Made by a program: the position numbers and the translations under genes. From positions 1 through 64,000 of the IMG/VR virus record IMGVR_UViG_3300024520_000063: a stretch of DNA of 64,000 bases. The stretch is one strand, 5' to 3'. Positions 11 through 61,578 of the stretch are shown here, piece by piece. The stretch comes from a virus. Every line of letters begins with the position of its first letter. Positions within the stretch are counted from its first letter, which is position 1. The notes under the pieces were generated by a model. That model searched no databases and was not told where the DNA came from. It saw only the letters and a list, made by a program, of their open reading frames with translations.

Positions 11-3000
11 TTATATAATTTTCCCCATATTGCCAAAGTTGGCATTCAGCTGTCCCATTCCAGTGTTAATCAGATTAAGAATCCTGTTGCCCTCCACGGC
101 AGCGTCAAGTTGCTTATCGCCCTTCAGTGAGGTCTGAATCTGACTGTGCAAACTTCCGACATCAGTCAATCCGACAGGAGCGTCCGTAAGTGACGCCTCT
201 TTGACTCCCGCGATCGCCGCCTCTTCTGCGATCTTCTTCTCAGCATTAGCCACAGACTCGTCATTTCCTGGATCGACATCAGCTTGGATTTGCGCAATCT
301 TGGCTTCAAGGTCACGTCTAATCTTGGCCCTCTGCTCGTCAATGTCGACTTCTCCGTCAGCAGCATCAAGGCGACTCTGGAAATCCGCATTCTCTCCAAT
401 CTTTCTCGCCTGATCCTGACGGCCAGCCTTCAACATATCATCGAACAATTGTGAATCAGCCTCTTCTGTCGCTTTCTGTTTCTCTGCTGGGGTTAGCCTT
501 CCGGCTGCGTCCTCTTCCTCGATTCTTTTTCGTCTGGCAATATCCGCTTCCTGTATCTGGTCCTGCTCTCGGTCCAGTCTTGTGCTGTCTGATTTCAGAG
601 AGTCGATCTCGCTGCCGAACTTCAGTCTTGCCGACTCGTCATTTAGGTATGCGATTCTCTTCTGAGCTGCAAGGAAGTTATTCAGGGCAGCCGTGGCGGC
701 AGCTAACTCAGCAGGCGTCTTGCTAAGAGTGTTCGCCCACTCTTCCAATTGAGCATCAGCACTGAAAGCCTGTGATTTTATATTATATAGGGACTTGGAA
801 AGAGCATCGAGACCTGGCCTGTCAGCTTCCAGCTTGAATGTCTCTGCTAATGCGCTATTAACTCCAATATTCTCCCTTCGCCTAATATCCTTAGCTGACC
901 CCGGGAGCCTGCCTGCGGCTTCAGCACTCTCGCTGCTGATGCGGTTACGGAAATCCGCCATAGTCTCACCAGACTGTCTTTTGAACCTGGATGATTTAAT
1001 GCTCTCCTCTTTGGCCAATTCTTCCTGTCTTGTAAACTCGTCTTTGAATGCCTTCTTGCGACGTATATCGTCTGGGGTCGTGCCTTTAATGCTCTCGTCA
1101 ACACCCTGCCTTCTCTTATCGAAATCAGATTCAATCTTGTCGAGCTTTTGGGTATTTACATCATTTATTCCACCTCCAACACCAGAAAGAAACTTGTCGA
1201 TCGAATCATCGTACAGCTTGATCATGCCCTGTAGTTGATTTCTGTTTTCAGTCAGTGACGCTATTTGTGTTTCGCTGAGCCCACCTTTATCCAGTGTGTC
1301 GTCAATACTCTTTAGTTGTGTTCTGGCACCAAAGGACGCATGTGCCATCGACTCGGCATCCTTAAGGTTGGATACCGATGATCCAAACGCTATCTGGCTT
1401 GTCTTGCCAGACATAAAATCATTCATTCTCTGGGTAAGCTGAACAATGGAGTCCGCGAACGCTTTTGACGCCGCTTCCGCTTCCGCTGTAACTCTGGAAA
1501 TTTCCTCCAAAGTCTCTTTGAATTTTACTAATTCTGGACTGTCCCCGTCGATCTCTTTCAGGCTGTGCAGCAAGCGAGCAATCTCTGCTTTTCCAGCAAG
1601 CGAGCTTTTGTCTATATTAGCTATATCTGTAAGAGATTGCTTATTCTCTGGATTCATTGTAGAACCCAGTCTTTCAGCCGTCTTCATCGCCTTTGCCTTA
1701 CCGCTTACAAGTAATTCATTTAAGACGTGCATCTTAAACGTGTCAAGGCCTTCGTTTGCCCTGTCCGCCAACCCCGGAATATTATCAAAGTCACTTATTT
1801 GATCTTGCGCAGTATCTGCGATTACAGCAGTAAAGTGCATTATCTTGGAGAACGTCTCGTTAAGGCCAGCGGCCCAACCACTACTGGATACATCCAAAAT
1901 AATAGAATCGAGTTGTCCCTCTGCCTTGCTCTTCAGGCCCTCTTTGTCGAAAGCCTTTTGGGTTACTTTCTCTGCCTGAGATACGGAAAATTCTTCAGAC
2001 AGGCCCCGTGATGAGAGAATATCGAGACTGTCAGACCTTCCCTGCTCTCTTAACTTGACCAGTGTTTCAAGCTTGCGTATCAGAATCTCCAAGTCCTTGG
2101 ATGTGTCTTTCGCCGACTTACCCATAAGGGTTATTGCCTCTGCGATCCCGATCATTAGAAGCGTCACACCGCCACTTAAGAGAGCCCCCTTGACCGTGCC
2201 CATCGTTGCGAACAACTGAGCTACGTTATTTGCAGATGCGCGGAGAGCACCGCTCAGGCCAGTTTGTCCGATAACTTGGACAAAGTCCTGTACGGCATAC
2301 GACCCCTGCTGCATCATGAACGTGACTTTGCGCTGCCCTTGAGACGCAGCGTGCGCAGCTTCGTTAAAGCCTCCAGTCGCAGCACTTAGTCTCTGCATGT
2401 TGTTATCGTTATCCTGCAACTCCTTTTGAAGTTCTTTGAATTCCTTAGTGTTACCCCTTCCAGTAGTCTTTAGGTTGTTCATTCGCGTTGTAAGTTTTTT
2501 AGATGCCAGATCAAGCCTTTGCATGTTTTGAAGCATTGGAAGCTGTGATTTTCTAAACTCAATCTGTGCATCGATATTGTCCTGAATGGCTGCGTTTCCG
2601 GAGCCTCTCTCCTTTTTAAGCCTCTCCAGAACACTAATCTCATCTTCCAGATCATTGACCCGGGTAGATCCTCCGCCCTCCACAGCGTCTAGCTCTGACT
2701 GAAATGAGTCTGAAAGTGCGGCCTTTCTTCTCTCGCGGCTCTCATCTCGGTCAACCCTGCTCAAATCCTGTTTCAGTTTTTGTTGTTGTTTTGGGTCAAG
2801 CTTTCTACCCTGGTTGTCGGCTATCTCTGCTGAACTCTCTAGTAATTTTTGCCTCTGCTTATCAAATGGCCCAGTAAGAGCATCTTCAAGCTGCTGTTCC
2901 AGAACGGCATAGGTCTGCTGTCCCAGAATGGCGAACTGAGAAAAGAACTCGTCAGGTGACAGGCCTGCGCCGCTGATTTTATCTGCGCCCTCTGACAACA

Positions 3001-4147
3001 TCCCCCCGACATTCTCGCGGGATAGTTGACGACCGATACGGCCACTGGTTCGCTCTTGATCTCGCCCTCTCCTGGCCTCTTGTCTGGCCACGCCAACTTC
3101 GAACTGTGCATCTCCAATTCTTCCGCTCGCAAGCCCCTCCTGGAGGCCAGCTTCGACCCTGTCATAATATTCGTTTGCAGCCTGCTTGGTTTGTGCGGCA
3201 ATATGCTCAGCCGCATCGCGAGCAGCCTGAGCCAATTCCGGACGGGCATCGTCAGGATCGGCCCCTATACCTCCAACCTGGCTGACTATCTGCTTGCGCT
3301 GCAGTTTGGCAAAGTCCTGTCCGGATACTCCCAACATGTCACGGTTAGCCTGACGCTCCTGCCGCACTCCCGACTCACCCTGGAATCTTTGTGCAAGCCG
3401 GACTGCTCCGAAGTTGCCAGCGGCGTCTGTCATCTGCCTCTCTGCTGTTGAGGCAACCCGAGTGATCGCTTCCGAGTCTCCTTCAGATACTTGAGTCTGT
3501 GCCCTTATTGCCGTTAGGTATCTCTCATGTTCGGATCCTGCATCAATATCGCCAGAGGCACGTCCCGACTTCAACATCTGATCCATGAAGGCGACTGGAT
3601 TGCGATGAATGTCCTTTTTGCCTTCTGTGGTGAACCGACCTCTTGTTTCCTCAAAGGACTCCCTCTGGTTGAGTAGGGATTCCCGCATCGGAAGTGTTCC
3701 GCCAGCACCAAGGAAGGCAGAGGACTTCTGAGCAGCATCTCTAACTTGCTTCTTGAGGCCTAGCTGTCGATCGAGTGCTCGTTCGATCGCCTTCTCGTCC
3801 TGAAGTCGACGAGCTGTGATTGCGTTGCCTTTGTCTTCCTGAGACTGATACCTCTTCAGTGATTCGAGAGCCTGTTTGTCTCGGATGGCCCCTTTCATCT
3901 GAGGGCTCAACTTGAACTCTGTTTGCCCTCCCCTGATTGCACTCTGGAGCCTTTTAATTTCGGCTCCGCCGTTCTTCATGCCTTTGATCCACTGCTCCAG
4001 TCCTTTCACTTGACCAGCAGTGATCATGTCCGGCATTTTGAACTTGTTCAGTTCATTGGCAGCTTCTCGCACGCCCTTCAGAAGCTCAGGTAGACCCTCA
4101 GCCGAGAAGTCTACATGAGCACTGCCGATTGATGTGCCTCTGGCCAT
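11..4147 (-). CDS. tail tape measure protein
   Basis: 1378-aa ORF, extended coiled-coil-rich sequence with central hydrophobic segment (GALLSGGVTLLMIGIAEAITLMG), located at distal end of structural module; typical TMP size/position. Confidence 0.8.
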   Translation of the reverse strand: MARGTSIGSAHVDFSAEGLPELLKGVREAANELNKFKMPDMITAGQVKGLEQWIKGMKNGGAEIKRLQSAIRGGQTEFKLSPQMKGAIRDKQALESLKRYQSQEDKGNAITARRLQDEKAIERALDRQLGLKKQVRDAAQKSSAFLGAGGTLPMRESLLNQRESFEETRGRFTTEGKKDIHRNPVAFMDQMLKSGRASGDIDAGSEHERYLTAIRAQTQVSEGDSEAITRVASTAERQMTDAAGNFGAVRLAQRFQGESGVRQERQANRDMLGVSGQDFAKLQRKQIVSQVGGIGADPDDARPELAQAARDAAEHIAAQTKQAANEYYDRVEAGLQEGLASGRIGDAQFEVGVARQEARRGRDQERTSGRIGRQLSRENVGGMLSEGADKISGAGLSPDEFFSQFAILGQQTYAVLEQQLEDALTGPFDKQRQKLLESSAEIADNQGRKLDPKQQQKLKQDLSRVDRDESRERRKAALSDSFQSELDAVEGGGSTRVNDLEDEISVLERLKKERGSGNAAIQDNIDAQIEFRKSQLPMLQNMQRLDLASKKLTTRMNNLKTTGRGNTKEFKELQKELQDNDNNMQRLSAATGGFNEAAHAASQGQRKVTFMMQQGSYAVQDFVQVIGQTGLSGALRASANNVAQLFATMGTVKGALLSGGVTLLMIGIAEAITLMGKSAKDTSKDLEILIRKLETLVKLREQGRSDSLDILSSRGLSEEFSVSQAEKVTQKAFDKEGLKSKAEGQLDSIILDVSSSGWAAGLNETFSKIMHFTAVIADTAQDQISDFDNIPGLADRANEGLDTFKMHVLNELLVSGKAKAMKTAERLGSTMNPENKQSLTDIANIDKSSLAGKAEIARLLHSLKEIDGDSPELVKFKETLEEISRVTAEAEAASKAFADSIVQLTQRMNDFMSGKTSQIAFGSSVSNLKDAESMAHASFGARTQLKSIDDTLDKGGLSETQIASLTENRNQLQGMIKLYDDSIDKFLSGVGGGINDVNTQKLDKIESDFDKRRQGVDESIKGTTPDDIRRKKAFKDEFTRQEELAKEESIKSSRFKRQSGETMADFRNRISSESAEAAGRLPGSAKDIRRRENIGVNSALAETFKLEADRPGLDALSKSLYNIKSQAFSADAQLEEWANTLSKTPAELAAATAALNNFLAAQKRIAYLNDESARLKFGSEIDSLKSDSTRLDREQDQIQEADIARRKRIEEEDAAGRLTPAEKQKATEEADSQLFDDMLKAGRQDQARKIGENADFQSRLDAADGEVDIDEQRAKIRRDLEAKIAQIQADVDPGNDESVANAEKKIAEEAAIAGVKEASLTDAPVGLTDVGSLHSQIQTSLKGDKQLDAAVEGNRILNLINTGMGQLNANFGNMGKII

Positions 4148-15327: not shown

Positions 15328-16245
15328 ATGACCGACCTCAAATCGATCCCAGAGGGGAAGATTGAGACAGTTGAGATTTCCCTCTTGCGGAACAACCCGC
15401 TCAATGAGGAAATCTACGGCACCGAGGATGTCGACCCTGATCTTTTAAGGTCGATTCAAGATCACGGTGTCGATACGCCGATTGAAGTTCTTCCGGACGG
15501 AACTATCATCAAGGGCCACCGCAGAAAGCTGCACGCAGAAGAGGCTGGGCTTACAGAGGTCCCAGTTATTGTCCGCCACGAGCTGAACTCTCCGGAAGAG
15601 GTTGGCTTCGCTCTGATCGAAGACAATCGCCACCAGAGAAACAGGACGAATATACAGAAGGTGCGTGAAATCATGTACCTGACAGGGATGCTCCAGACCC
15701 AGAACAGAATCCGCAAGGCTACGGGGCTTCCTGTTTATGAGGCTGATGCCCATACGGACGAAGAACTTATGGAGCTTTCCGGGATGAGCCGGGAGAGCTA
15801 CGAGCAGGTTGCCAGTCTCACCGAAAGCTATGCAGCCAGGTTTGGATCGTCAGCATCTCCCCAGGATGTGGCCTGTGATCACATCGGAGTCAGCAAAAAG
15901 ACGTTCATGCAGGGACAGAATGCCCTAAAGACAGCAGAGGCCTGGCGGAGTGCTGGAAACGACAAAAAGGCCGACCAGATCGAAGAGGCTCTCCATAAGG
16001 GTATCTCAACTGGATATCAGGTCGCCAAGAAGATCGGTCAGCCCGGCAAGAGGAGTGAGAAGAAAGTAATCAAGGCTAAGGCCAGCATAGAGTCGGTCAT
16101 TCTCACTCTTAAGAGTATGACGGCGGCACTTCACAAGGCTCGCGTCGCCATTCCAGAATCACTGCGTGATCAGCTCGACACCATCATCAATAAAATCAAT
16201 AGCATGAGGGAAGAACTTGAAAAGTCCGAACTCGACAATACTTGA
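15328..16245 (+). CDS. ParB-like nuclease domain protein
   Basis: N-terminal ParB/Sulfiredoxin-type block (DTPIEVLPDGTIIKGHRRKLHAEEAGLTEVPVIVRHE). Confidence 0.65.
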   Translation: MTDLKSIPEGKIETVEISLLRNNPLNEEIYGTEDVDPDLLRSIQDHGVDTPIEVLPDGTIIKGHRRKLHAEEAGLTEVPVIVRHELNSPEEVGFALIEDNRHQRNRTNIQKVREIMYLTGMLQTQNRIRKATGLPVYEADAHTDEELMELSGMSRESYEQVASLTESYAARFGSSASPQDVACDHIGVSKKTFMQGQNALKTAEAWRSAGNDKKADQIEEALHKGISTGYQVAKKIGQPGKRSEKKVIKAKASIESVILTLKSMTAALHKARVAIPESLRDQLDTIINKINSMREELEKSELDNT

Positions 16246-18496
16246 GGGCGACAGCCTGCAAGTACTCAAAGGCCTGCCTGATAACTCATTCCAGTGCTCC
16301 GTAAGCTCGCCTCCTTACTGGAATTTGCGCAACTATCAAGTCGATGGACAGATAGGGCTTGAGCCAACCGCACGCGAATTCATCCAGAATCTCGTATCTG
16401 TTTACTCAGAACTAAAGAGGGTTCTCCATCCGTCTGGTATTGCCTGGATTAACATAGGCGACAACTACGCCGGTGGAGGAAACAAGCGAGGCAAGGGTAG
16501 TCCGATATCCAGCAAACAGTCCAGTAATGCCGGATGCACTGGCCAGCTTGCGGATGTGCCAATAGTAGAAGATCTTCCACGGAAGAACATGAATGGAATG
16601 CCATGGAGATTTGCCTTTGCAATGCAGGATGACGGCTGGGTCCTCCGAGATGCGATAATTTGGCAGAAAAAGAATCCGATGCCTACGAGCCAAAAAGATA
16701 GATGTACGAACTGTTACGAGTACATCTTTCAGTTCACGAAGGGTCCAAAGTACTTCTTTGATATGGAGTCTGTGAGAGAGCCTGCCAGATATGGAGCTGG
16801 GGAGAACTTTCGGAGTTCGTCATATCTCAATGATAAGTCTCACAACAACAGCCAAGACCGGTCAGGATCGACCGAAGGAGGGATTCCGGGCAAGGGTGGA
16901 ACGCGAGTGCCTAGGAACATCAGAAGCTGGGCAACCCAAGGCTATAAAGGTGCTCACTTTGCTTGTGTTGACGAGGAAACCCAGTGCTTGACCAAAGAAG
17001 GATGGAAGTCTCAAGATCAAATTAAGCCGGGTGATGTCGCCGCCCAGTACAACATGGAGAGCGGCCTCTTGTCCTGGGCTGAAGTTGAAGACGTAGCGAG
17101 ATACGATGTTTCTGACCAAGACATGGTTTCTGCCGAATGCCGTGACTTGTCAATGCTTTTGACTCCTAACCACAGAACGATAATCTCCAGAAGAAGATCG
17201 AGAGGAAAAGGCCATCACCCTCCGACCATAATCGAAGCTGAGAATCTTAGTGATGGCCACAGAATACCAGTCTCTGCCGACTGGGATGATGGCGATCATG
17301 ATCAAACCATGGGAGGGGTAGAGTGGGCAGAACTGATAGGATGGTACGTTGCGGAAGGGTACGAAAACAAGAAATCGTGGTCTGTGGATATATATCAAAG
17401 CAGATCAGCAAATCCGGAAAAGGTCGAGAGGATTCGGCATCTTCTGGATTACGTGGATGCCGAGTACGAAGAGACTCAATCTGAGAGGAAATACAAAAAT
17501 CGCACATGCAGCATGTCTTCATTCAGAATAACTGGTCACGCGGCCATAAAAATAAGAAGCATGGTCCCAGGGAAAAGGCTTTCTTGGTCTTATATGGGGC
17601 TGTCAGCAGAAGAGATGAGGGCTCTTGTTGCTGGACTTATTGCTGGAGATGGACACATTCGGCCAGATGATGGCCGGGTGTGCTTTATCCAGAAGTCGGA
17701 CCACTGTATCGACTTGGTTCAAGCAATGGCTGTTAGGCTGGGATATGCTGTAAAGATCACAAAATCCCCTTCAACATGGAGAATGTACCTGACTGAAAAA
17801 AGATACATTTCTCTTCGTGGTACGAATGGAAGTGGCAGGAATATATCAACAAAGAAATATTCCGGAGTTGTGTGGTGTCCAAAACTACCCCATGGAACCT
17901 GGGTTGCTAGGAGGAATGGACGAGCATTCATAACTGGGAATACTTTTCCAATTTCGCTCCCTCTATGGTGTATTACGGCCAGTGCTCCGAAAGCAGGCGT
18001 CTGTGCTAAATGCTTCACGCCATACAAGCGAGTAGTCGAAAGCATCCGCAGGGCGACCCGTCCGGGAGAAAACACCAAGATCAAGATGCCGGACGGATGG
18101 GACACAGGAGAGGGCGGGCACGGCAGTTTTCATCGGGAAGGCAGAGAGAAAGGCCAGTACCGTGACACAGCAGAGATTGGAAACAGAGATCCGCAACGTC
18201 ACGTCACAGAAACAACCACCGTTGGGTGGGAACCTGGATGCACTTGCGATTGCGGAACTGATTTCCCAGCAATTCTGGATCCCTTCTCAGGGGTCGCCAC
18301 TACAGGACTGGCCTGTTCGCGCCTCCGATGCCACTACGTGGGAATCGAACTTAATCCAGAGTATGCACAGATGTCGCGGGACAGAATCAAGGACGATCTG
18401 ATCAAGGGATTCGATCCGAACCCACATGCCGTGAACCTTAATCTGGGAACTGGTATCGACTTATGTCAGGAAAACGTGTCACAATTTAATTACTAA
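16217..18496 (+). CDS. beta-class amino-DNA methyltransferase (N6A/N4C), intein-containing
   Basis: motif IV SPPYWNLRNY near N-terminus and motif I DPFSGVATTG near C-terminus (beta-class order); central insertion with intein/LAGLIDADG blocks. Confidence 0.75.
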   Translation: MKSPNSTILEGDSLQVLKGLPDNSFQCSVSSPPYWNLRNYQVDGQIGLEPTAREFIQNLVSVYSELKRVLHPSGIAWINIGDNYAGGGNKRGKGSPISSKQSSNAGCTGQLADVPIVEDLPRKNMNGMPWRFAFAMQDDGWVLRDAIIWQKKNPMPTSQKDRCTNCYEYIFQFTKGPKYFFDMESVREPARYGAGENFRSSSYLNDKSHNNSQDRSGSTEGGIPGKGGTRVPRNIRSWATQGYKGAHFACVDEETQCLTKEGWKSQDQIKPGDVAAQYNMESGLLSWAEVEDVARYDVSDQDMVSAECRDLSMLLTPNHRTIISRRRSRGKGHHPPTIIEAENLSDGHRIPVSADWDDGDHDQTMGGVEWAELIGWYVAEGYENKKSWSVDIYQSRSANPEKVERIRHLLDYVDAEYEETQSERKYKNRTCSMSSFRITGHAAIKIRSMVPGKRLSWSYMGLSAEEMRALVAGLIAGDGHIRPDDGRVCFIQKSDHCIDLVQAMAVRLGYAVKITKSPSTWRMYLTEKRYISLRGTNGSGRNISTKKYSGVVWCPKLPHGTWVARRNGRAFITGNTFPISLPLWCITASAPKAGVCAKCFTPYKRVVESIRRATRPGENTKIKMPDGWDTGEGGHGSFHREGREKGQYRDTAEIGNRDPQRHVTETTTVGWEPGCTCDCGTDFPAILDPFSGVATTGLACSRLRCHYVGIELNPEYAQMSRDRIKDDLIKGFDPNPHAVNLNLGTGIDLCQENVSQFNY
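16985..17941 (+). mobile_element. intein with LAGLIDADG homing-endonuclease domain inside the methyltransferase gene
   Basis: starts Cys (CLTKEGW), contains LIGWYVAEGY and LVAGLIAGDGHI (two LAGLIDADG blocks), ends ...ITGN followed by Thr; splicing would restore HFATFP, matching HPAVFP of the paralogous MTase at 26922. Confidence 0.65.
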
Positions 18497-19385: not shown

Positions 19386-20000
19386 ATGACTCAGAAAGTA
19401 ATCTCTCTGTGTGATCGCACAGGGAACATGGTTAAGCCATGGGCAGAGGCTGGATACGAATGCATCTGTGTTGATATCCAGCATTCCATCCGAAGGACAA
19501 AAGTCAAAGGCAACATCACCTATCAGTGGGGCGACGTCCGGTCGTGGTGGCCTTTTCCGGATTGGGATATTGCCATGGTGTTTGCAGCGCCACTTTGCAC
19601 GGACCTCTCGGTTTCAGGTGCTCAAGACTGGCCCAAGAAGGGCCTGACTCGCTTAATTGACGCCCTGACTATGGTTGAATGCTGTCGTCGCATCGGAGAG
19701 TTCAGCCGAGCACCATGGATGATCGAGAACCCGGTCGGAAGACTCTCGTCCTTGTGGAGCAAGCCGGACTACACGTTCCAGCCATGGAACTACGGAGATA
19801 TGTATCAGAAGAAGACCTGCCTCTGGACGAACGAGAAGTTTGTGATGCCAGAGTTTCAGATCACAGAAAAACCAGAGGAAGTCACTCAGGATATCTGGAC
19901 TATGTCCCCATCTGCTAACCGGGCCGATCTTCGGTCGGTCACTCCGATGGGATTCTCAAAAGCAGTATTCGAGGCCAATCATCGTATTAAGGCCTCGTGA
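19386..20000 (+). CDS. C5-cytosine DNA methyltransferase-like protein, N-terminal catalytic half only
   Basis: motif I-like ISLCDRTGNM, motif IV-like FAAPLCTDLSVSGA (cf GGPPCQGFSxAG), motif VI-like ENPVGRL; lacks TRD and motifs IX-X. Confidence 0.4.
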   Translation: MTQKVISLCDRTGNMVKPWAEAGYECICVDIQHSIRRTKVKGNITYQWGDVRSWWPFPDWDIAMVFAAPLCTDLSVSGAQDWPKKGLTRLIDALTMVECCRRIGEFSRAPWMIENPVGRLSSLWSKPDYTFQPWNYGDMYQKKTCLWTNEKFVMPEFQITEKPEEVTQDIWTMSPSANRADLRSVTPMGFSKAVFEANHRIKAS

Positions 20001-26921: not shown

Positions 26922-27671
26922 ATGGAGATAAATAAAATTTACAACGAAAATTGTCTTGATACGATGGCAAAAATGCCTGATTGCTTTGTGGATTTAACGG
27001 TTACTTCACCGCCTTATGATAATTTGAGAGATTACAAAGGGTTTGATTTTGATTGGAAAACTATAATAAAAGAACTTTATAGGGTAACAAAAGAGGGTGG
27101 TGTAGTAGTTTGGGTTGTTGGTGATGCAACAATTAAAGGAAGTGAAACGGGAACATCTTTTAAGCAAGCATTACACGCTATTGATTGTGGTTTTCGTTTG
27201 CACGATACAATGATTTACTCAAAAGCAAGTCAGCCAAGACAAAACGGGCATAGGTATGAACAGCAATTTGAATATATGTTTGTGTTTAGTAAAGGGAAAG
27301 TTAAAATAAAAAACATTATAAAAGAACCATCTAAAAATGCAGGAAAGGTTGTCAAAAGGACTTGTAGAGATAGTGGAAAAGATGAACTAAAAAGTAGTAA
27401 AAATATTGTTTCAGACTTAAAAACAAAAGGGAATGTGTGGTTTTACGGAACTAAAAAAAACGACACAAAACACCCTGCTGTATTTCCTAAACAATTAGCA
27501 AACGACCATATCATAAGTTGGAGCAATGAAAACGATTTAATCTACGACCCATTTTTGGGAAGTGGAACAACGGCTAAAATGGCGTTACTAAACAATCGAA
27601 AATTTGTCGGGAGTGAAATATCAAAAGAGTATTGCGAAATTGCAGAGAAGCGAATCAATGAAAATCTATAA
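26922..27671 (+). CDS. beta-class amino-DNA methyltransferase (orphan), AT-rich codon usage
   Basis: SPPYDNLRDY (motif IV) then DPFLGSGTT (motif I); paralog of 16217 MTase but with strongly AT-biased codons. Confidence 0.8.
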   Translation: MEINKIYNENCLDTMAKMPDCFVDLTVTSPPYDNLRDYKGFDFDWKTIIKELYRVTKEGGVVVWVVGDATIKGSETGTSFKQALHAIDCGFRLHDTMIYSKASQPRQNGHRYEQQFEYMFVFSKGKVKIKNIIKEPSKNAGKVVKRTCRDSGKDELKSSKNIVSDLKTKGNVWFYGTKKNDTKHPAVFPKQLANDHIISWSNENDLIYDPFLGSGTTAKMALLNNRKFVGSEISKEYCEIAEKRINENL

Positions 27672-45261: not shown

Positions 45262-45582
45262 ATGTCAACGCAGGATTTCGGCACTCCGGAAGTAGTCACG
45301 GAAACCGTCACCGTGGAGAACGTCAAGATCCTTGTGATCAACAACGCCGGAAACGGCTTTGCTGACTTCAAGACGTTCCCGGCTGGGACCAAGTACGTGG
45401 ACATCTTCAAGCAGATCATGCCTGAAGGTGCGAAGCCGGAGGATTACTCCATCCGGGTCAACAAGAACCTGGTTTCCACTGAGGACGGTGCCACTCATGG
45501 TGACAACCTGTCCATCACCAGTGCCGTCGCCAACCCGAACGATCGCCTGACGGTCGCTCCGAAGAAGGTCGCTGGAGCGTAG
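45262..45582 (+). CDS. beta-grasp ubiquitin-like (ThiS/MoaD-like) protein candidate
   Basis: 106 aa; pattern I.V.N...V....DGATH.GDNL.I resembles ThiS/MoaD core (I.VNGE.V....L.DGDEV.I); sits first in E2-JAB-E1 cluster; ends ...KKVAGA rather than GG. Confidence 0.4.
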   Translation: MSTQDFGTPEVVTETVTVENVKILVINNAGNGFADFKTFPAGTKYVDIFKQIMPEGAKPEDYSIRVNKNLVSTEDGATHGDNLSITSAVANPNDRLTVAPKKVAGA

Positions 45583-45699
45583 TCGCTGCTTCTGGGGGCT
45601 GGAATTTCCGGCCCCCAGACTTTGGAGCTTCCTGGGGATACCAGAGAGGTTCGATTCCTCCGGCTCCACTTCACGTACCTCTAATCAGGAGACCTAATT

Positions 45700-46890
45700 G
45701 TGCTACACGAAATTATTCCTGCGACCCCGCGATTAGTCGAAAAGCTTGTAGCGAGAGAGAGGGATCCCGCAAGAACAGATCCACTACTGTGGGAAAAATC
45801 AGAAGACACTGAGATGTATATAGAAATAGCATCTCGCGAGACGGCCAAGCTGGTTTCCAGCGTAGATGTCATGCAGAGGAAAATCAGGGCGTTAAACGCA
45901 ACACAGAAGCCATCTTTCGGGAAAGCTCTAAGAGATTCTGCATATACTGCCTATAACGACGCAAAGCATCAATTGGATGAGGCTTACTACAACCTAACCT
46001 CGTTCAATATACCCGAACGTCGCAGCAGCCCGGTCGCTCGGACCAACAACACCAAGAAGATTTCGTATCTGAGCAACTCCGACTTCATAGAGCAGGAAAA
46101 GGTGATGATACACCGCTCATATAAGACGGTGTTCATCACAACAGAACCAATCGTAATCGAAAACATCAACCTTGGTGCTTTTGAGATTCATGTCAGGCCA
46201 CGTGTTGACTCGACAGCAGAGGCATACGCACTCAACCCCAACCCGGCAATCAGCAATCCAGTCGTTACCCACCCGAATGTGAAGAATAACACTGTCTGCC
46301 TGGGCGAAGGTAAAGATGCATACAACAAGGCCGTTATGGAAGGGCGTCTTTGCGATGCACTGCAAATTGCCTTATCCGTCGTGAGAAATTACGGGTGGAG
46401 AAATCCCTACCTGTCTATTAGCGAATGGTTTGGAGTCAACTGTGGATTCTGTGGCCACTTGAATACACCAAATAGAACATTTCAGTGCATCGACTGCAAA
46501 GTAAAGGGATGCAAAACCTGCGCTTACACAGGGACTGCTCGAAGATGCTACGAGTGCCATGAGTACAGGCTGGCCAATCCTCCAGACGAGTGCTACAGGT
46601 GCAGTCGAGAGGCTCATAATGAATGCCCGGACTGCAAGAAGAAAGTCTGCGGGAGATGCTGGATCGAAGATTCCTGCAATCTCTGCTATCGCAGAAACAA
46701 TCAAGCCTGCAACAGGTGCGAGCGTGTCACCCGGATAGACACGTGGCCAGATCCGTGTGCTGGATGTGAGGTACGTTTATGTGCTCTATGTATGGAGCAC
46801 GGAGTTTTGTGTCCTACGTGCTATCAGGGTCACCTCAATGAGAACCCGGATGTGGCACGACTTATTGGGAGTCTGCGAGATGACGACTAA
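45700..46890 (+). CDS. E2 (UBC)-like ubiquitin-conjugating domain protein with C-terminal Cys-rich zinc-ribbon array
   Basis: GTG start after RBS aggagac; VTHPNVKNNTVCLGEG matches E2 HPN(I/V)xxxGx(I/V)C active-site signature; C-terminal half has >20 Cys in CxxC pairs. Confidence 0.55.
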   Translation: MLHEIIPATPRLVEKLVARERDPARTDPLLWEKSEDTEMYIEIASRETAKLVSSVDVMQRKIRALNATQKPSFGKALRDSAYTAYNDAKHQLDEAYYNLTSFNIPERRSSPVARTNNTKKISYLSNSDFIEQEKVMIHRSYKTVFITTEPIVIENINLGAFEIHVRPRVDSTAEAYALNPNPAISNPVVTHPNVKNNTVCLGEGKDAYNKAVMEGRLCDALQIALSVVRNYGWRNPYLSISEWFGVNCGFCGHLNTPNRTFQCIDCKVKGCKTCAYTGTARRCYECHEYRLANPPDECYRCSREAHNECPDCKKKVCGRCWIEDSCNLCYRRNNQACNRCERVTRIDTWPDPCAGCEVRLCALCMEHGVLCPTCYQGHLNENPDVARLIGSLRDDD

Positions 46891-48013
46891 CAACAAACCT
46901 GTGTTCTCTCCGTCTGCATGGCAGAAATACATTCTGCTTCGAGACATGGGGGGCACTGAGATTTCCGCGATGGCGATCTGCTTTGACCCCGACGAACCGC
47001 TGAAAATCAACGATCTCTACGTGCCCGAGCAAACATGCAGCTCGGCCTACACTGAGTTCGATGACGACGCCTTGAGTGAGCTGTACGAGATGTATGGCCC
47101 GCAGATCGACCCGGATGACGACACCAAGCTCACCGGTCTGCATCCTTATCAGTTCAGCCGCATCTGGCTGCACACTCACCCAGGTCAGAGCGCAAAGCCT
47201 TCAGGGACCGACCACACCACATTCAAGGAGCGGTTCGGGCCTCCAGACTGGGCAGTTATGTTCATTCTGGCACGTGGGGGACAAACCCATTGCGAGCTTA
47301 AGGTTCGCAGTGAATCCGGTCTTGTTAACGCTCATGTCAGGCACGATTCCAGTGAGTGGGTCGACTGGAGCATGCCGTGCGTTCCGGTGAATCATGATGA
47401 ATTGAAGGAAATCTACAAGAAGAAAGTAAAAACCAGCCACGCGGCGGTGTCTTACGGCGGTGCGTGGAATGGCGGACACTCCTACACCACTCGTGGGGGC
47501 AAGCCAGGATACTACGCCAATGGAAAGTGGACCGAGTATGGGACTCAAGGGAAGTCCAACCAGACCGGCACAAAGAAGATTGAAGTTAACCAAAGAAACC
47601 AGAGAGAGCCACTCGACTTTGGCGACCTGGAATGGAGATACAAGCGTGAAGACCACTTCATGAAGCAGTATCTCCAGGATGTTTACGTGGACATCAAGAC
47701 ATGGGGAAATGCTGCCGACGTCATGAAGAGAGATGACTTTGAAGAAGTTTGGGCTCCGGACGACCAGGACTTCGCAATGTGGATGGACCAGAAGTGGCTC
47801 ATGGGTCGAGATTGCAAAATCGAATTCATCGACGAGAGCGAAGATGGAGAAGAGACCATATGGGAATGCTCTGCCCAGGAAGCGCAGATGCTTGTCCAGA
47901 AGAAAGTCATCGAGGACACGGACTTCGGAGAGTTTTTCGGTGCAGACAAAAAGGATGACGAAGACGATGAGGAATTGGATTTCTCTTTCCCTGGTCTGCA
48001 CATGTGGCAGTAA
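46880..48013 (+). CDS. JAB/MPN+ (JAMM) metallopeptidase domain protein
   Basis: IWLHTHPGQSAKPSGTDHTTF = HxHx7Sx2D JAMM motif with upstream Glu; overlaps upstream stop by 11 nt. Confidence 0.65.
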   Translation: MTTNNKPVFSPSAWQKYILLRDMGGTEISAMAICFDPDEPLKINDLYVPEQTCSSAYTEFDDDALSELYEMYGPQIDPDDDTKLTGLHPYQFSRIWLHTHPGQSAKPSGTDHTTFKERFGPPDWAVMFILARGGQTHCELKVRSESGLVNAHVRHDSSEWVDWSMPCVPVNHDELKEIYKKKVKTSHAAVSYGGAWNGGHSYTTRGGKPGYYANGKWTEYGTQGKSNQTGTKKIEVNQRNQREPLDFGDLEWRYKREDHFMKQYLQDVYVDIKTWGNAADVMKRDDFEEVWAPDDQDFAMWMDQKWLMGRDCKIEFIDESEDGEETIWECSAQEAQMLVQKKVIEDTDFGEFFGADKKDDEDDEELDFSFPGLHMWQ

Positions 48014-48058
48014 GGCTGGCTGTAACCGCTTAATGTTTCTCTAACGGAGGTGGAAGGT

Positions 48059-48913
48059 ATGCCGTCACTTAACAGGTTTTCTCGACAGGAGAGTATTGTC
48101 CCGGTTGAGAAGAAGACTCCGGTGACAATCATCGGGGTCGGAGCTATTGGACTTCAGCTCGCGAAGTTCATGGCCTCAATGGGAATCCCTCAAATCAGGT
48201 TGATCGACTTTGATGTAGTCGAAGATACCAACATCACTACGCAGGGATACACCGGATCGCAGCTGGGATTGCCCAAGGTGGAAGCCGCAAGGGATTCCAT
48301 CCATGCCATCGACGCGGACATCAAGGTCATCGCAGAAAATGACCGATGGAGACCGAAAACCAAGATTGATGGGGTCGTGTTCTGCTGCGTCGACTCGATC
48401 AAGGCTCGCGAGTGCATCTGGAAAGGCATCAAGAATAAGGTGGATTTCTTCTGTGATGCCAGAATGCTCGGTGAGGTCTTCCATGTGTACGCATGGATCA
48501 AAGGTGCCCCTCACGAAGACTACGAGCAGACGCTGTTCGCAGAAGAAGAGACGATCGCAGGCCAGTGTACCGCAGCAGGTACGATCTACTGTGCTGGCAT
48601 GGCCGCAGGTGCCATGTGTCACCAGTACACGCGATGGATCAGGGGTGTTCTGCCTCCCGATGTGAGCTGGTCCTGTGCTTTGCTGTCCAGCGAGCTTTCA
48701 GTCATCTCACGGGACTTCGTTGCTCCGCCAGAGGATACTGGAATGCTGGTCAAGGAAGTAATCGTCGAGAAGCCAGAAGAGGTTGCGACTCCTGTGGAAG
48801 AAGAGGCAGAAGAAGCCTCAGCTGAACCAGAACCGGTGCCCGCTCTGGCGGACCCTGTGGACGACTATGACGATGATGACTGGGACAGAGAACGAGAAGA
48901 GGACCGCTGGTAA
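48059..48913 (+). CDS. E1-like (ThiF/MoeB family) activating enzyme
   Basis: VTIIGVGAIGLQLAKFMASMGIPQIRLIDFDVVEDTNITTQ matches ThiF/MoeB Rossmann GxGxxG ... D.D.VE.SNL.RQ block; RBS ggaggtgg; followed by terminator. Confidence 0.7.
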   Translation: MPSLNRFSRQESIVPVEKKTPVTIIGVGAIGLQLAKFMASMGIPQIRLIDFDVVEDTNITTQGYTGSQLGLPKVEAARDSIHAIDADIKVIAENDRWRPKTKIDGVVFCCVDSIKARECIWKGIKNKVDFFCDARMLGEVFHVYAWIKGAPHEDYEQTLFAEEETIAGQCTAAGTIYCAGMAAGAMCHQYTRWIRGVLPPDVSWSCALLSSELSVISRDFVAPPEDTGMLVKEVIVEKPEEVATPVEEEAEEASAEPEPVPALADPVDDYDDDDWDREREEDRW

Positions 48914-48924
48914 CAATTCCCAAT

Positions 48925-48960
48925 ACGGAGCGCCAACCTTGGCGCTCCGTATTTCCTTTT
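48925..48960 (+). terminator. rho-independent terminator (ACGGAGCGCCAA/TTGGCGCTCCGT stem + T-tract)
   Basis: direct reading: acggagcgccaaccttggcgctccgtatttcctttt. Confidence 0.7.
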
Positions 48961-48971
48961 AAGGACTAGCC

Positions 48972-50321
48972 ATGAATAGAAAGAGAGTTAAGCAGATCCT
49001 GAAGGCTTGTGGGAACTGGTCTCAGAGTCAGGAATTCGACATCCGCCCCGTCCGACAACAGTTGGCCCGTGCCACGGGCCAACTGAACACCTCAAGGCGG
49101 ATAATTACGCAATCCGCCATAAGGGGCTCTATTACTCGCGAAGAACACCTGGCCCTTCAGAGGGCAGTAGAAGAAACAAGATCCAACTTGTCTACTCTTA
49201 CCCGCTGGGTCAGAGATCTCCCGTTCGACACCCAAACCAGAGAGTCAGCCGCACCGAATCTGGACTATGTCGATCGGGACGAGTACGTCATTGACCGGAA
49301 GACAATCAGTTTCACCACAGAACCCATCACATTTGATGATGTTGAGCTGGGCAGATTCAAAGTCTCACTGAATACAGAAAATGGCACTCTCATAGCCGAG
49401 GCCCTTGAGCCTAACCACCCACAAGAGGACTCAAGAGTTACCCATCCGAACATCAAGAATGACGCTATCTGCATGGGAGAAGGAGCTGGACCGTTCTCGG
49501 CCTGCATCAGACAAGGCTTGTTCTTCCACGCACTGGATATCGCAGTATCCGTCGTAAGAACCAATGGGGACGACAGCCCTTACGTTTCAATTGAAAACTG
49601 GGACGGGTACGAATGCGGCGCGTGTGGCGACAGTACCACGGATATATGCCGCGAGTGTGAAGAGGCGTTTTGCTCAGAGTGCCAGATCGCGGACACGGAT
49701 GGATATTCACGCTGCGATGATTGCTCTCCGCCAACCTGCTGCATCTGTGAAGCTGTCAGGTTCGGAGAAACCTGTTCCGCCTATGGGTGCTATGAATCTA
49801 TCTGTGGAGCGTGCTTGGATAATAATCACGTATGTCCGGAACACAGGCCTGTATGTGCAATCTGCGAAGAAAAGCATTCCGGAGATACCCCTTGTCCTGG
49901 CTGTGGCGATAGCGTCTGCGATGAATGCGGCTGGGAGCGATGCCACCTGTGCGATGAGTACAAATGCTCAAATTGCATTGATCAGTGCCATGCCTGCGAG
50001 GAAAAATCCTGTAACGGATGCTCTGCCATTAAGTGCGAGGAGTGCCCAGAGCATATTTGCGGAGCATGTATGCAATCCTGTGAGTGTGGAGAAGATGTCT
50101 GTGCGACATGCTTTTCCGATAACGGAGATTGTTGTTCCAACTGTAAGGAGCCTGAGGAATGTTCGGAGACAACAGAGACGACCCCGACGAATTCATCAGA
50201 AGGGCCGCAACAACCACAGTCACCAGAAGGTTCCGGTCAAGACGAACCGAACTCTACCAGGTCAAGCGAAGAAGTATCGCAGGATGTGGTCGTATGCGAG
50301 GTGATCCTCTCGAACGACTGA
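48972..50321 (+). CDS. second E2 (UBC)-like protein with extended Cys-rich zinc-ribbon array (paralog of 45700)
   Basis: VTHPNIKNDAICMGEG E2 signature; about 60 Cys in CxxC arrangements in C-terminal 250 aa. Confidence 0.55.
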   Translation: MNRKRVKQILKACGNWSQSQEFDIRPVRQQLARATGQLNTSRRIITQSAIRGSITREEHLALQRAVEETRSNLSTLTRWVRDLPFDTQTRESAAPNLDYVDRDEYVIDRKTISFTTEPITFDDVELGRFKVSLNTENGTLIAEALEPNHPQEDSRVTHPNIKNDAICMGEGAGPFSACIRQGLFFHALDIAVSVVRTNGDDSPYVSIENWDGYECGACGDSTTDICRECEEAFCSECQIADTDGYSRCDDCSPPTCCICEAVRFGETCSAYGCYESICGACLDNNHVCPEHRPVCAICEEKHSGDTPCPGCGDSVCDECGWERCHLCDEYKCSNCIDQCHACEEKSCNGCSAIKCEECPEHICGACMQSCECGEDVCATCFSDNGDCCSNCKEPEECSETTETTPTNSSEGPQQPQSPEGSGQDEPNSTRSSEEVSQDVVVCEVILSND

Positions 50322-54601: not shown

Positions 54602-55498
54602 ATGTCGCAGACTGACCAGACAGAACTTTGTAACGTGATCATGGAGCACTGCCGAGTCAGGAATGCTTTCCTGAAGAGCAAGAATGCCATCATCAACAGA
54701 ACAGCATCCAGCATTGCAACGGTGATTGGATATCACTCCGGCATGGAAGAGGTCGATCGGAAAAAGCAATACAACGCGGCCCGAGATTTCGTAGTGAAGC
54801 GTATCGCTGGCAAGGAAGCCCAGATGGATGGCGAACTCAGCGATCGACAGCGACTCGCAATCGAGGCTCTTGTTGGTGGTGTCATGGGAAGTGCCCAGGC
54901 CTTCACCGAACAGGAGAACGTCTATAAGAAAGAGCTGACGAAGCTGGGCAGGCAGCTGGAAATCTGGGAGAGATGGGCCAAGGATGTCCGAGGTATCTCT
55001 GAGTTCGGACTGTCTGTCGTCGTAGGGGAAATCGGAAATCTGGACAACTATCCGAACCCAGCCAAGGTCTGGAAGCGGATGGGATGTGCCCCCTATGAGA
55101 AGAACGGGGAAACCAAGGCCCCGAGTACGTGGCGGTCCAAGGGCGGACTTAAGAGCGAAGACTGGGAAATCCTTGGATACAGCCCGAGACGCCGCAGCGT
55201 GATCTACAACCTGGCAGCGTCCATCATTAAGGCGAATCCCAAGGACTCAGGGTCGGAGTTCAGGGCAAGATACGACGAAGCCAAAGAGCTGGGCTTGGAG
55301 AAACACCCTGATTGGAGCTTGGGCCACGCACACAACCACGGGATGCTGCTGTGTGGGAAGAGGTTCCTGAGGGAATTGTGGATCAACTGGACAGAACCGG
55401 ATTCCGAATTGTCACCGATATCCGAAGTTTCAGAACCGGTTGTCACCACAACAGAGAGGGTTCCATTTGCGATCACCGAAGAGTTGAGCTTGAAGTAG
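54602..55498 (+). CDS. HhH protein resembling C-terminal domain of IS110-family transposases (no DEDD domain)
   Basis: ISEFGLSVVVGEIGNLDNYPNPAKVWKRMGCAPYEKNGETKAPSTWRSKGGLKSEDWEILGYSPRRRSVIYNLAASIIK resembles Transposase_20 helix-hairpin-helix region. Confidence 0.35.
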   Translation: MSQTDQTELCNVIMEHCRVRNAFLKSKNAIINRTASSIATVIGYHSGMEEVDRKKQYNAARDFVVKRIAGKEAQMDGELSDRQRLAIEALVGGVMGSAQAFTEQENVYKKELTKLGRQLEIWERWAKDVRGISEFGLSVVVGEIGNLDNYPNPAKVWKRMGCAPYEKNGETKAPSTWRSKGGLKSEDWEILGYSPRRRSVIYNLAASIIKANPKDSGSEFRARYDEAKELGLEKHPDWSLGHAHNHGMLLCGKRFLRELWINWTEPDSELSPISEVSEPVVTTTERVPFAITEELSLK

Positions 55499-61096: not shown

Positions 61097-61423
61097 CGAA
61101 AGGCCCGCGTAGTGTTAATCAACACGCAAGTCTCTAAAACTTGAAATCTGGGTTAAAGTCCCAGCGCGGGCAATCAATTACCGACCCGGACCCTGTTGCC
61201 GAATAATGCCGTGTCTCGACCGACTGCGCCCGTGTAACCGAAAAAAGCCCTTACCTTCCGCGTAGAAGAATGCCACCGAGGGAACACTTACCGGAAAGCT
61301 CACCGTAACCGATCGCTACTGTTTTTCTCTTGACTAATCAGGATTCTCAAATAGGCTTTCATCTGCCGACCCTCAGGGGAACTTGGACTGGCCCGGTCTT
61401 GTGACTCTGGGGTGTCGGCTTTT

Positions 61424-61502: not shown

Positions 61503-61578
61503 GAAGAGGTGGTGTAGCGGAAACACGCCGTCGTGATCGATCAGGGCGGAACCCGAGGTTCAAATCCTCGTCCCTTCA
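61503..61578 (+). tRNA. second tRNA-like element
   Basis: acceptor GAAGAGG/TCCCTTC (one mismatch), D-arm GTGT-AGCGGAA-ACAC, T-arm CGAGG-TTCAAAT-CCTCG; anticodon region has 12-nt loop so noncanonical. Confidence 0.3.

Follow-up and report, generated by a model that had tools for sequence, protein, structure and literature searches.

Protein conjugation by the Bil, Bub and CBASS Cap2/Cap3 systems has so far been characterised as host machinery that is mostly aimed at phages. The locus described here is carried by a phage. Within a stretch of 64,000 nucleotides (nt) from the IMG/VR virus record IMGVR_UViG_3300024520_000063 (positions 1 to 64,000 of that record, hereafter the window), five genes at positions 45262-50321 encode, in this order, a candidate ubiquitin-like modifier (Ubl), a first E2-like protein (E2a), a JAMM-type metallopeptidase (JAB), an E1 and a second E2-like protein (E2b). 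Judged by its sequence, this cassette quite likely constitutes a complete and probably active Ubl-conjugation module carried by the phage. It appears to belong to a distinct family of prokaryotic Ubl-conjugation operons, found here in a phage together with a conserved second E2.

Comparison with described systems

The BilABCD operons (type II and also type I) are bacterial ISG15-like operons (Chambers et al. 2023 preprint, Hör et al. 2023 preprint). Their genes are separate and ordered Ubl-E2-JAB-E1, the same as in the cassette, and in their Ubl a short tail that can be dispensed with stands behind a conserved Gly, a sequence pattern also present in the cassette Ubl. The tail of E. aridi BilA (reconstructed from a V95K construct and the text) ends in VAGA, as do the last four residues of the window Ubl; BilC cuts after the Gly. 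Beyond this organisation, however, the two systems differ. The E2s of the cassette are unlike BilB (hhalign probability 0.1 against E. aridi BilB): the BilB active site is of CEHH type (Cys138...His151), with neither an upstream HPN nor a zinc-ribbon array, whereas the cassette has HP[N/H]-x6-C. BilD comprises 535 amino acids (aa) with IAD, AAD and CYS domains, whereas the cassette E1 is a single domain of 230-284 aa, and the BLASTP match between them (E 0.29) covers the Rossmann loop only. Comparison of the Ubl profile with E. aridi BilA gave no homology. Finally, Bil is a chromosomal anti-phage system, whereas the cassette resides in a phage and includes a second E2. Membership in Bil was rejected because the E2, E1 and Ubl have no detectable sequence relationship to BilB, BilD and BilA. 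The "Bil-like gene order" to which an earlier note on this DNA had drawn attention, without claiming membership, holds as an analogy.

Bub and CBASS Cap2/Cap3 likewise place E1/E2/JAB conjugation machinery on mobile or defence loci. Bub is built from fused Ubl-E2, JAB-E1 or E2-E1 proteins together with a DUF6527 serine protease; none of these is present here, and no DUF6527 match was obtained in the cassette or in the flanks scanned. CBASS uses an E2-E1 fusion, conjugates a CD-NTase and has no free Ubl, whereas no CD-NTase was found in the genes scanned on either side of the cassette. Membership in Bub or CBASS was rejected on the grounds of gene architecture and library scans. The ThiS/ThiF and MoaD/MoeB pairs provide the best matches for the E1 and for the Ubl family and have the same minimal single-domain E1; however, they include neither an E2 nor a JAB and are linked to cofactor biosynthesis, and the matches of the cassette lie far below the equivalog cutoffs.

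Caldiarchaeum-type operons (Ub, E1, E2, a small RING protein and an Rpn11-like JAB) and related operons in Actinobacteria, Planctomycetes and Acidobacteria are mentioned in PMC4197634. A classical HPN upstream of the E2 Cys, an Rpn11-like JAB and a zinc-binding component are shared with the cassette. It differs from them in that a CxxC array is fused to the E2 in place of a separate RING protein, in its minimal E1 and in its ThiS-like Ubl ending in Gly-Ala plus a tail; in addition, most bacterial members of the cassette family carry HPH, not HPN. The family may have been noticed computationally before, since PMC4197634 cites related operons in Planctomycetes (Burroughs et al. 2011). Neither a complete phage-encoded cascade nor this Ubl-E2-JAB-E1 family was found to be described in the literature searched, the scope of which did not extend to Burroughs et al. 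2011 and 2012.

The enzymes and the modifier

The five open reading frames (ORFs) were located at the coordinates given in Table 1, all on the plus strand, in agreement with the earlier description of five co-directional, tightly linked genes. The motifs noted before in E2a, E2b, JAB, E1 and the Ubl tail were all recovered in the translations.

The E2a motif HPNVKNNTVC occupies aa 191-200, with the HPN at aa 191-193 and the predicted catalytic Cys200 at nt 46297-46299; in E2b, HPNIKNDAIC occupies aa 158-167, with the HPN at aa 158-160 and Cys167 at nt 49470-49472. This HP[N/H]-x6-C arrangement is of the classical E2 type and one residue shorter than that of UbcH5B. Its His, Pro and Cys are invariant in an alignment of 35 sequences. 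E2a and E2b had no match in the Pfam, NCBIfam, PADLOC and PHROG libraries. Searching 1.84 billion proteins with a profile of their shared core retrieved 1387 cluster representatives (50% identity), and 903 of these scored below 1e-10. THP[H/N]V-x5-C-x-G-x-G is common to all matches listed; HPH is the usual form in the family and HPN the form found in the phage. The AlphaFold model of the E2a core (approximately aa 109-250) is reasonably confident (pLDDT 80.4, pTM 0.75). When it was compared with the PDB by Foldseek, E2s ranked first with no significant match, and a search of BFVD gave one marginal viral match (a 474-aa protein, E 5e-3). Searches of PDB sequences with the E2 profiles returned nothing significant. 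By hhalign, the motif is in register with that of human UbcH5B through the next helix (E 0.017, from a single comparison). The core of E2a and E2b is assigned a UBC-like fold with moderate confidence, and the assignment is strengthened by the operon context; the previous description of both proteins as UBC-type E2s is upheld at this level.

Behind the catalytic core, E2a carries an array of 12 CxxC pairs (24 Cys, nt 46441-46821), and E2b has one of 17 pairs (43 Cys, nt 49614-50144); across the family the number of pairs ranges from 9 to 20. The large size of both proteins had been ascribed to C-terminal zinc ribbons. The arrays are indeed present, but an N-terminal extension of approximately 110-145 aa, predicted to be helical in the short part that was modelled, contributes as well. 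The two proteins are clear paralogs (BLASTP 1e-32, 29% identity), and the distance between them equals that of either to the bacterial E2s, so the duplication is old or the genes were acquired separately. Four matches of the E2 profile (P0010, P0082, P0151 and P0106) have odd architectures: a 733-aa protein contains two complete E2-plus-zinc-array modules, another has a GYF domain and a trypsin-like protease fused to the E2, one carries 4Fe-4S ferredoxin domains and one ends in a JAB-like IWIHTHPG motif.

The JAB gene starts within the end of E2a, the overlap with the E2a stop being 11 nt; the earlier note, which had reported the overlap, read it as translational coupling. The start is backed by the homolog on the related phage contig L001, whose protein begins with MSSNKPEFSPSAWQKY. 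The motif HTHPGQSAKPSGTD lies at aa 98-111, and 51-52 of 52 homologs share the JAMM residues Glu27, His98, His100, Ser108 and Asp111. Scores against profile libraries are weak (Pfam Prok-JAB 1e-3, below the cutoff; PADLOC JAB 3e-3). Whole-domain alignment with the family profile gave the Rpn11-like "N11-like protein" 6fjv, which we take to be the Caldiarchaeum Rpn11 homolog, as the best match (E 0.0099), followed by yeast Rpn11 and AMSH. JAB is accordingly predicted to be a JAMM peptidase that best matches Rpn11-type deubiquitinases, and the JAMM/MPN+ assignment proposed before is borne out by the full signature and by the Rpn11-type profile match. A C-terminal extension of approximately 190 aa with an acidic tail occurs in the phage lineage only and had no database match. 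Acidic low-complexity C-termini are in fact found in the phage JAB, E1 and E2b (nt 47900-48013, 48750-48913 and 50150-50321) and are absent from the shorter bacterial homologs.

E1 matches Pfam ThiF with 4.3e-22 (78.9 bits; curated cutoff 28.1), and its best solved relatives are MoeB (5.6e-10) and UBA5 (2e-6). NCBIfam ThiF/MoeB models gave 47-61 bits, below their cutoffs of 152-376; the relatives among NCBIfam models and solved structures include ThiF, MoeB, MccB and PaaA. The PADLOC Cap2 "E1-E2" models align to the Rossmann region only (aa 18-120). GVGAIG occupies aa 26-31 and forms the nucleotide loop G26-G31. Invariant positions in 41 homologs are G26, G28, G31, D50, D52, N58, Q62, K73, D112 and C170. 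The last of these, Cys170 (41 of 41 homologs), stands at the crossover-loop position in GQCT (nt 48560-48571) and is a candidate for the thioester cysteine. The C-terminal tail of E1 is acidic. By these comparisons the assignment as a ThiF-family adenylase is unambiguous, and the ThiF/MoeB-type E1 recognised before in the ORF at 48059 is confirmed by the Pfam score above cutoff and by the invariant Cys170.

The phage Ubl ends in KKVAGA, with Gly105 as the candidate conjugation residue. Relative to bacterial homologs of 74 aa it has an N-terminal extension of 20 aa and an insertion of 13 aa. In five close homologs the tail TVAPKKVAGA(M) is invariant, and phmmer retrieved approximately 57 Planctomycete homologs of about 74 aa that end in KIEGA plus a variable tail of 0-20 aa. 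Pfam ThiS is matched by 27 of 32 aligned family members (best E 8e-6); other members match TGS, Ub-Mut7C, ThiS-like, RnfH and SAMP2, all of which are beta-grasp families. The AlphaFold2 (AF2) model of the window protein is poor, and the beta-grasp fold is for this reason assigned through the homologs; the order of secondary-structure elements in the model is compatible with it. It is thus through its family that the 106-aa ORF retains the beta-grasp assignment given to it earlier. The family has the invariant tail K-[I/V]-[E/A]-G-A, behind which come 0-20 residues (usually two) that vary; at least 90% of the sequences share Gly105. Because an invariant Gly-Ala plus a variable tail is the signature of precursors that are trimmed, the Ubl is probably such a precursor. 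The Ubl gene stops at a TAG codon, read-through of which would append 34 residues up to a TAA; global recoding of TAG is not indicated, since this codon terminates 13 of 70 long ORFs.

Relatives, genomic setting and RNA elements

The same cassette had been suggested as a target for searches of phage databases, and related phage contigs (L001, L071, L072 and L073) were found to carry cassette genes; E2a-JAB-E1-E2b is kept on three further phage contigs. The order E2a-JAB-E1 is present on L001, and L071 is syntenic with the window over 13 kb. Contigs L072 and L073 derive from marine samples, one of them a Tara Oceans sample; on both, the same 162-aa gene comes after (E2a-)JAB-E1-E2b. Identity to the window proteins is 64% for E2a, 55-60% for JAB, 69-81% for E1 and 43% for E2b, the latter being the fastest-diverging gene of the cassette; its orthologs (P0157 and P0158, 43% identity) directly follow E1 in related phage contigs. 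The cassette is kept in phages whose other genes have fallen to 45-83% identity. The related phages retain E2b behind E1, and the two-E2 layout is therefore conserved in this phage group. In GenBank phages neither DNA nor protein searches gave a relative, and neither did scans of IMG/VR with single proteins, with the family alignment or with the DNA pattern for THP[H/N]...C.G.G; the sole IMG/VR hit of the degenerate DNA pattern (L070) was discarded as a chance match. Scans of metagenome contigs, in one of which the patterns were poorly chosen, gave no relative either.

Genome contigs (one genome per species) were scanned with a narrow E2 alignment, and 65 loci were obtained. Nearly all of them belong to Pirellulaceae, Planctomycetaceae and other Planctomycetota, and several genomes contain two to five copies. 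In about 55-60 of the 65 loci, homologs of all four genes keep the order Ubl-E2-JAB-E1 on a single strand. Nothing is conserved 3' of E1, and in about half of the loci a co-directional block upstream comprises a large serine recombinase, a classical AAA ATPase (PF00004; phrog_8638, 3e-86) and several unassigned genes. In L007 (2-10301), the order is serine recombinase, three unassigned genes, AAA ATPase, three unassigned genes and Ubl-E2-JAB-E1; similar elements occur in approximately 30 other loci (L005-L066), with up to five copies in one metagenome-assembled genome. Since the upstream block is shared and nothing is conserved after E1, the bacterial cassette appears to form one end of an integrative element that is present in multiple copies. 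The cassette is all that the phage has in common with these elements. The cassette can be judged not to be a product of chance, because its motifs are invariant across large homolog sets and its order recurs in dozens of independent loci. It appears to have been exchanged horizontally with this operon family of Planctomycetota mobile elements.

Table 1. Coordinates of the cassette genes and intergenic elements in the window.
Feature	Position	Strand	Description
Ubl	45262..45582	+	106 aa, ATG...TAG; ThiS/MoaD-like beta-grasp modifier precursor (predicted)
Ubl-E2a spacer	45583..45699	+	GC-rich hairpin 45591-45619 and tRNA-like piece ~45595-45669
E2a	45700..46890	+	396 aa, GTG start, AGGAG site upstream; N-terminal extension, UBC-like core, CxxC array
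JAB/MPN+ metallopeptidase (predicted)	46880..48013	+	377 aa; JAMM motif nt 47171-47212
Minimal E1, ThiF/MoeB-type adenylation domain	48059..48913	+	284 aa; nucleotide loop nt 48134-48151
Terminator-like stem-loop between E1 and E2b	48922..48963	+	14 bp, 8 G-C pairs, T-rich tail
E2b, second E2 paralog	48972..50321	+	449 aa; UBC-like core, CxxC array, acidic/Ser-Thr-rich tail

Two RNA elements lie within the cassette. The spacer between Ubl and E2a has a fold z-score of -3.3; behind a strong GC hairpin directly 3' of the Ubl stop comes a tRNA-like piece, whose T-arm (GAGGTTCGATTCCTC) is canonical and whose 3' end is CGGCTCCA. Rfam returned sub-threshold matches only, to mascRNA-menRNA (19.8 bits, E 0.058) and tRNA-Sec. 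L002, a related phage, retains both the hairpin and the T-arm, and its sequence shows compensatory changes in them. The spacer may be an RNA processing (RNase P/Z-type) or attenuation signal that sets the ratio of Ubl to the enzymes; alternatively, the tRNA-like piece could be an att-like fragment matching the 3' end of a host tRNA. The second element is the stem behind E1 (48922-48953 without its T-rich tail). It is kept in L072 (2795-2830) and L071 (approximately 1771-1799), with both sides changed in 6 of 11 pairs, although the comparison comprises four sequences only; in L071 the stem-loop seems to overlap the start of E2b. A strong terminator had been proposed at this position. The stem and the T-rich tail are present as described, but a role as the end of the transcription unit does not hold: the relatives retain both the hairpin and an E2b adjoining E1, and an operon boundary was rejected for this reason. 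Being conserved while E2b always adjoins E1, the hairpin looks like a regulator, which suggests regulated read-through or translational control of E2b.

Genes for a major head protein, a portal, a head-tail adaptor, ParB, DNA methyltransferases and a sliding clamp were identified in the window, and the cassette therefore does lie inside a phage genome, as had been stated. Proteins identical to those of the cassette are encoded on contigs of 98.5 and 99.3 kb; the carrier is a bacteriophage of roughly 99 kb, probably with a host among the Planctomycetes. On the strand of the cassette, small genes without an assigned function lie upstream and putative replication genes downstream. The structural module (approximately 4-14.5 kb of the window) is on the minus strand, i.e., far from and opposite to the cassette. 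No integrase was found among the window proteins scanned.

Several other features of the window were recorded. A ParB-like protein adjoins a 759-aa methyltransferase fusion, and two more DNA methyltransferases are encoded (15328-18496, 19386-20000 and 26922-27671), a set that suggests heavy investment in anti-restriction. The gene at 54602-55498 has weak matches to IS110-family transposases and to a PHROG "transposase"; as it is conserved (70% identity) and syntenic in L071, it probably belongs to the phage core and is not an insertion sequence. A 1378-aa ORF at 11-4147 (minus strand) is situated at the end of the structural module and had no PHROG match. ARAGORN predicted tRNAs at 61103-61172 (CUA anticodon, amber-suppressor-like, labelled Pyl) and 61503-61578 (tRNA-Asp with an unusual AUC anticodon).

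Proposed mechanism and role

In the pathway proposed for the cassette, JAB would trim the Ubl precursor after Gly105, thereby removing Ala106 (or, in relatives, a tail of 0-20 residues); this step would have a direct precedent in E. aridi BilA/BilC. The ThiF/MoeB-type E1 would adenylate the exposed C-terminus and take the Ubl onto Cys170 in its crossover loop, after which the Ubl would be handed on to Cys200 of E2a or Cys167 of E2b. The C-terminal CxxC arrays may serve as built-in E3-like modules for target recognition; if so, it would follow that E2a and E2b steer the tag to two different sets of proteins. JAB might also remove the tag. The rapid divergence of E2b and the variable number of CxxC pairs (9-20) are consistent with a role in target recognition. 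The chemistry of these steps is inferred from the E1, E2 and JAMM families; the domains, the catalytic residues, the Ubl tail and the co-inheritance of the genes are observed.

A number of observations weigh against a conjugation module of this kind. E1 is a bare adenylation domain of 230-284 aa and lacks the CYS, UFD or IAD modules of E1s known to charge E2s. The AF2 model of the window Ubl, built from five close sequences, is unusable (pLDDT 53), and the match of the Ubl profile to MoaD is non-significant. Most bacterial relatives of the E2s have HPH instead of HPN, and no Pfam domain family, whether E3 or other, matches the zinc arrays. Moreover, all 32 aligned Ubl homologs have an Ala behind the Gly, and every one of the 60 phmmer matches listed either ends in this Ala or has it before the tail, which is unexpected if the residue is simply removed; the mature protein may end in this Ala, or the Ala may be needed as the P1' residue.

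The role of the conjugation module is most likely one in conflict, i.e., the tagging of host proteins or of those of competing mobile elements, because it lies co-directionally near unassigned and putative replication genes and because its relatives are found on multi-copy integrative elements. Exclusion of competitors and takeover of the host were ranked about equal within this role, and modification of the virion itself and a biosynthetic function were considered unlikely.

That the cassette is cargo for defence or superinfection exclusion is possible but doubtful. Bil-like tagging of structural proteins of competitor phages would then block their assembly. Homologous cassettes occupy multi-copy serine-recombinase elements in Planctomycetota, a typical home of defence genes, and the rapid divergence of E2b would fit an arms race. 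However, there is no PADLOC model for the E2, the Ubl or the whole system, the proteins lack any sequence relationship to BilB, BilD and BilA, and no integrase is found among the window proteins scanned; in diverged phages the cassette forms a conserved syntenic core block near putative replication genes and not a variable piece of cargo.

Takeover of the host, or counter-defence, is a suggestion of the same tentative standing, with early tagging inactivating, relocalising or destabilising host defence or proteostasis factors. Such a function would fit the surroundings of the cassette, in which small unassigned genes, the cassette and then putative replication genes share one strand, although the timing of transcription is deduced from gene position only. 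Two E2s with different zinc arrays imply several targets. The linkage of the bacterial relatives to the AAA ATPase (PF00004) hints at tag-directed unfolding, but the phage has neither this ATPase nor the other genes of the element.

That the module acts on virion or assembly proteins of the phage itself, in the manner of lambda-like tail assembly, is improbable: Ubl-fold and JAB domains are known from phage tail-assembly proteins (Iyer et al. 2006), but the structural module is distant from the cassette and encoded on the other strand, and the cassette is also found on small bacterial elements, whose upstream genes, as far as scanned, gave no match to a structural family. More improbable still is a sulfur-carrier or peptide-modifying pathway like those of ThiS/ThiF or MccB, in which the "E2" and JAB would be accessories. 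This reading, which the relatives of E1 (ThiF, MoeB, MccB and PaaA), the minimal build of E1, like that of biosynthetic enzymes, and the Pfam ThiS matches of the Ubl family might suggest, was rejected because NCBIfam biosynthetic models score far below their cutoffs and no thiamine, molybdopterin or microcin genes were found among the adjacent genes scanned in phage or bacterial loci, the UBC-like protein with its invariant Cys and the Rpn11-type JAMM peptidase moreover being always co-inherited.

It is proposed, tentatively, that a phage lineage of approximately 99 kb, probably with a host among the Planctomycetes, runs a complete Ubl pathway of its own, in which two E2s that carry their own zinc-finger selectors of targets, as E2-E3 hybrids, rewrite the proteome of the host or of rivals during infection. 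If this is true, no virus of prokaryotes would have been known before it to encode the cascade in full. With 1387 clusters at 50% identity the parent family is large, and mobile elements of Planctomycetota account for nearly all of it; it would represent a branch not recognised before, near the roots of eukaryotic E2 and Rpn11 chemistry. The combination of an HP[N/H]...Cys E2, an Rpn11-like protease and a minimal ThiF-like E1 bears on how E2 charging and E3-like choice of targets evolved, and the fused zinc-ribbon arrays may be a new modular mode of target selection. A phage with a full Ubl-E1-E2-JAB set and a duplicated, fast-evolving E2 would reverse the host-versus-phage picture; the finding suggests that ubiquitin-style tagging may be used by phages and not by hosts alone, and the five-gene cassette would offer a tractable system in which to ask what bacterial viruses gain from it.

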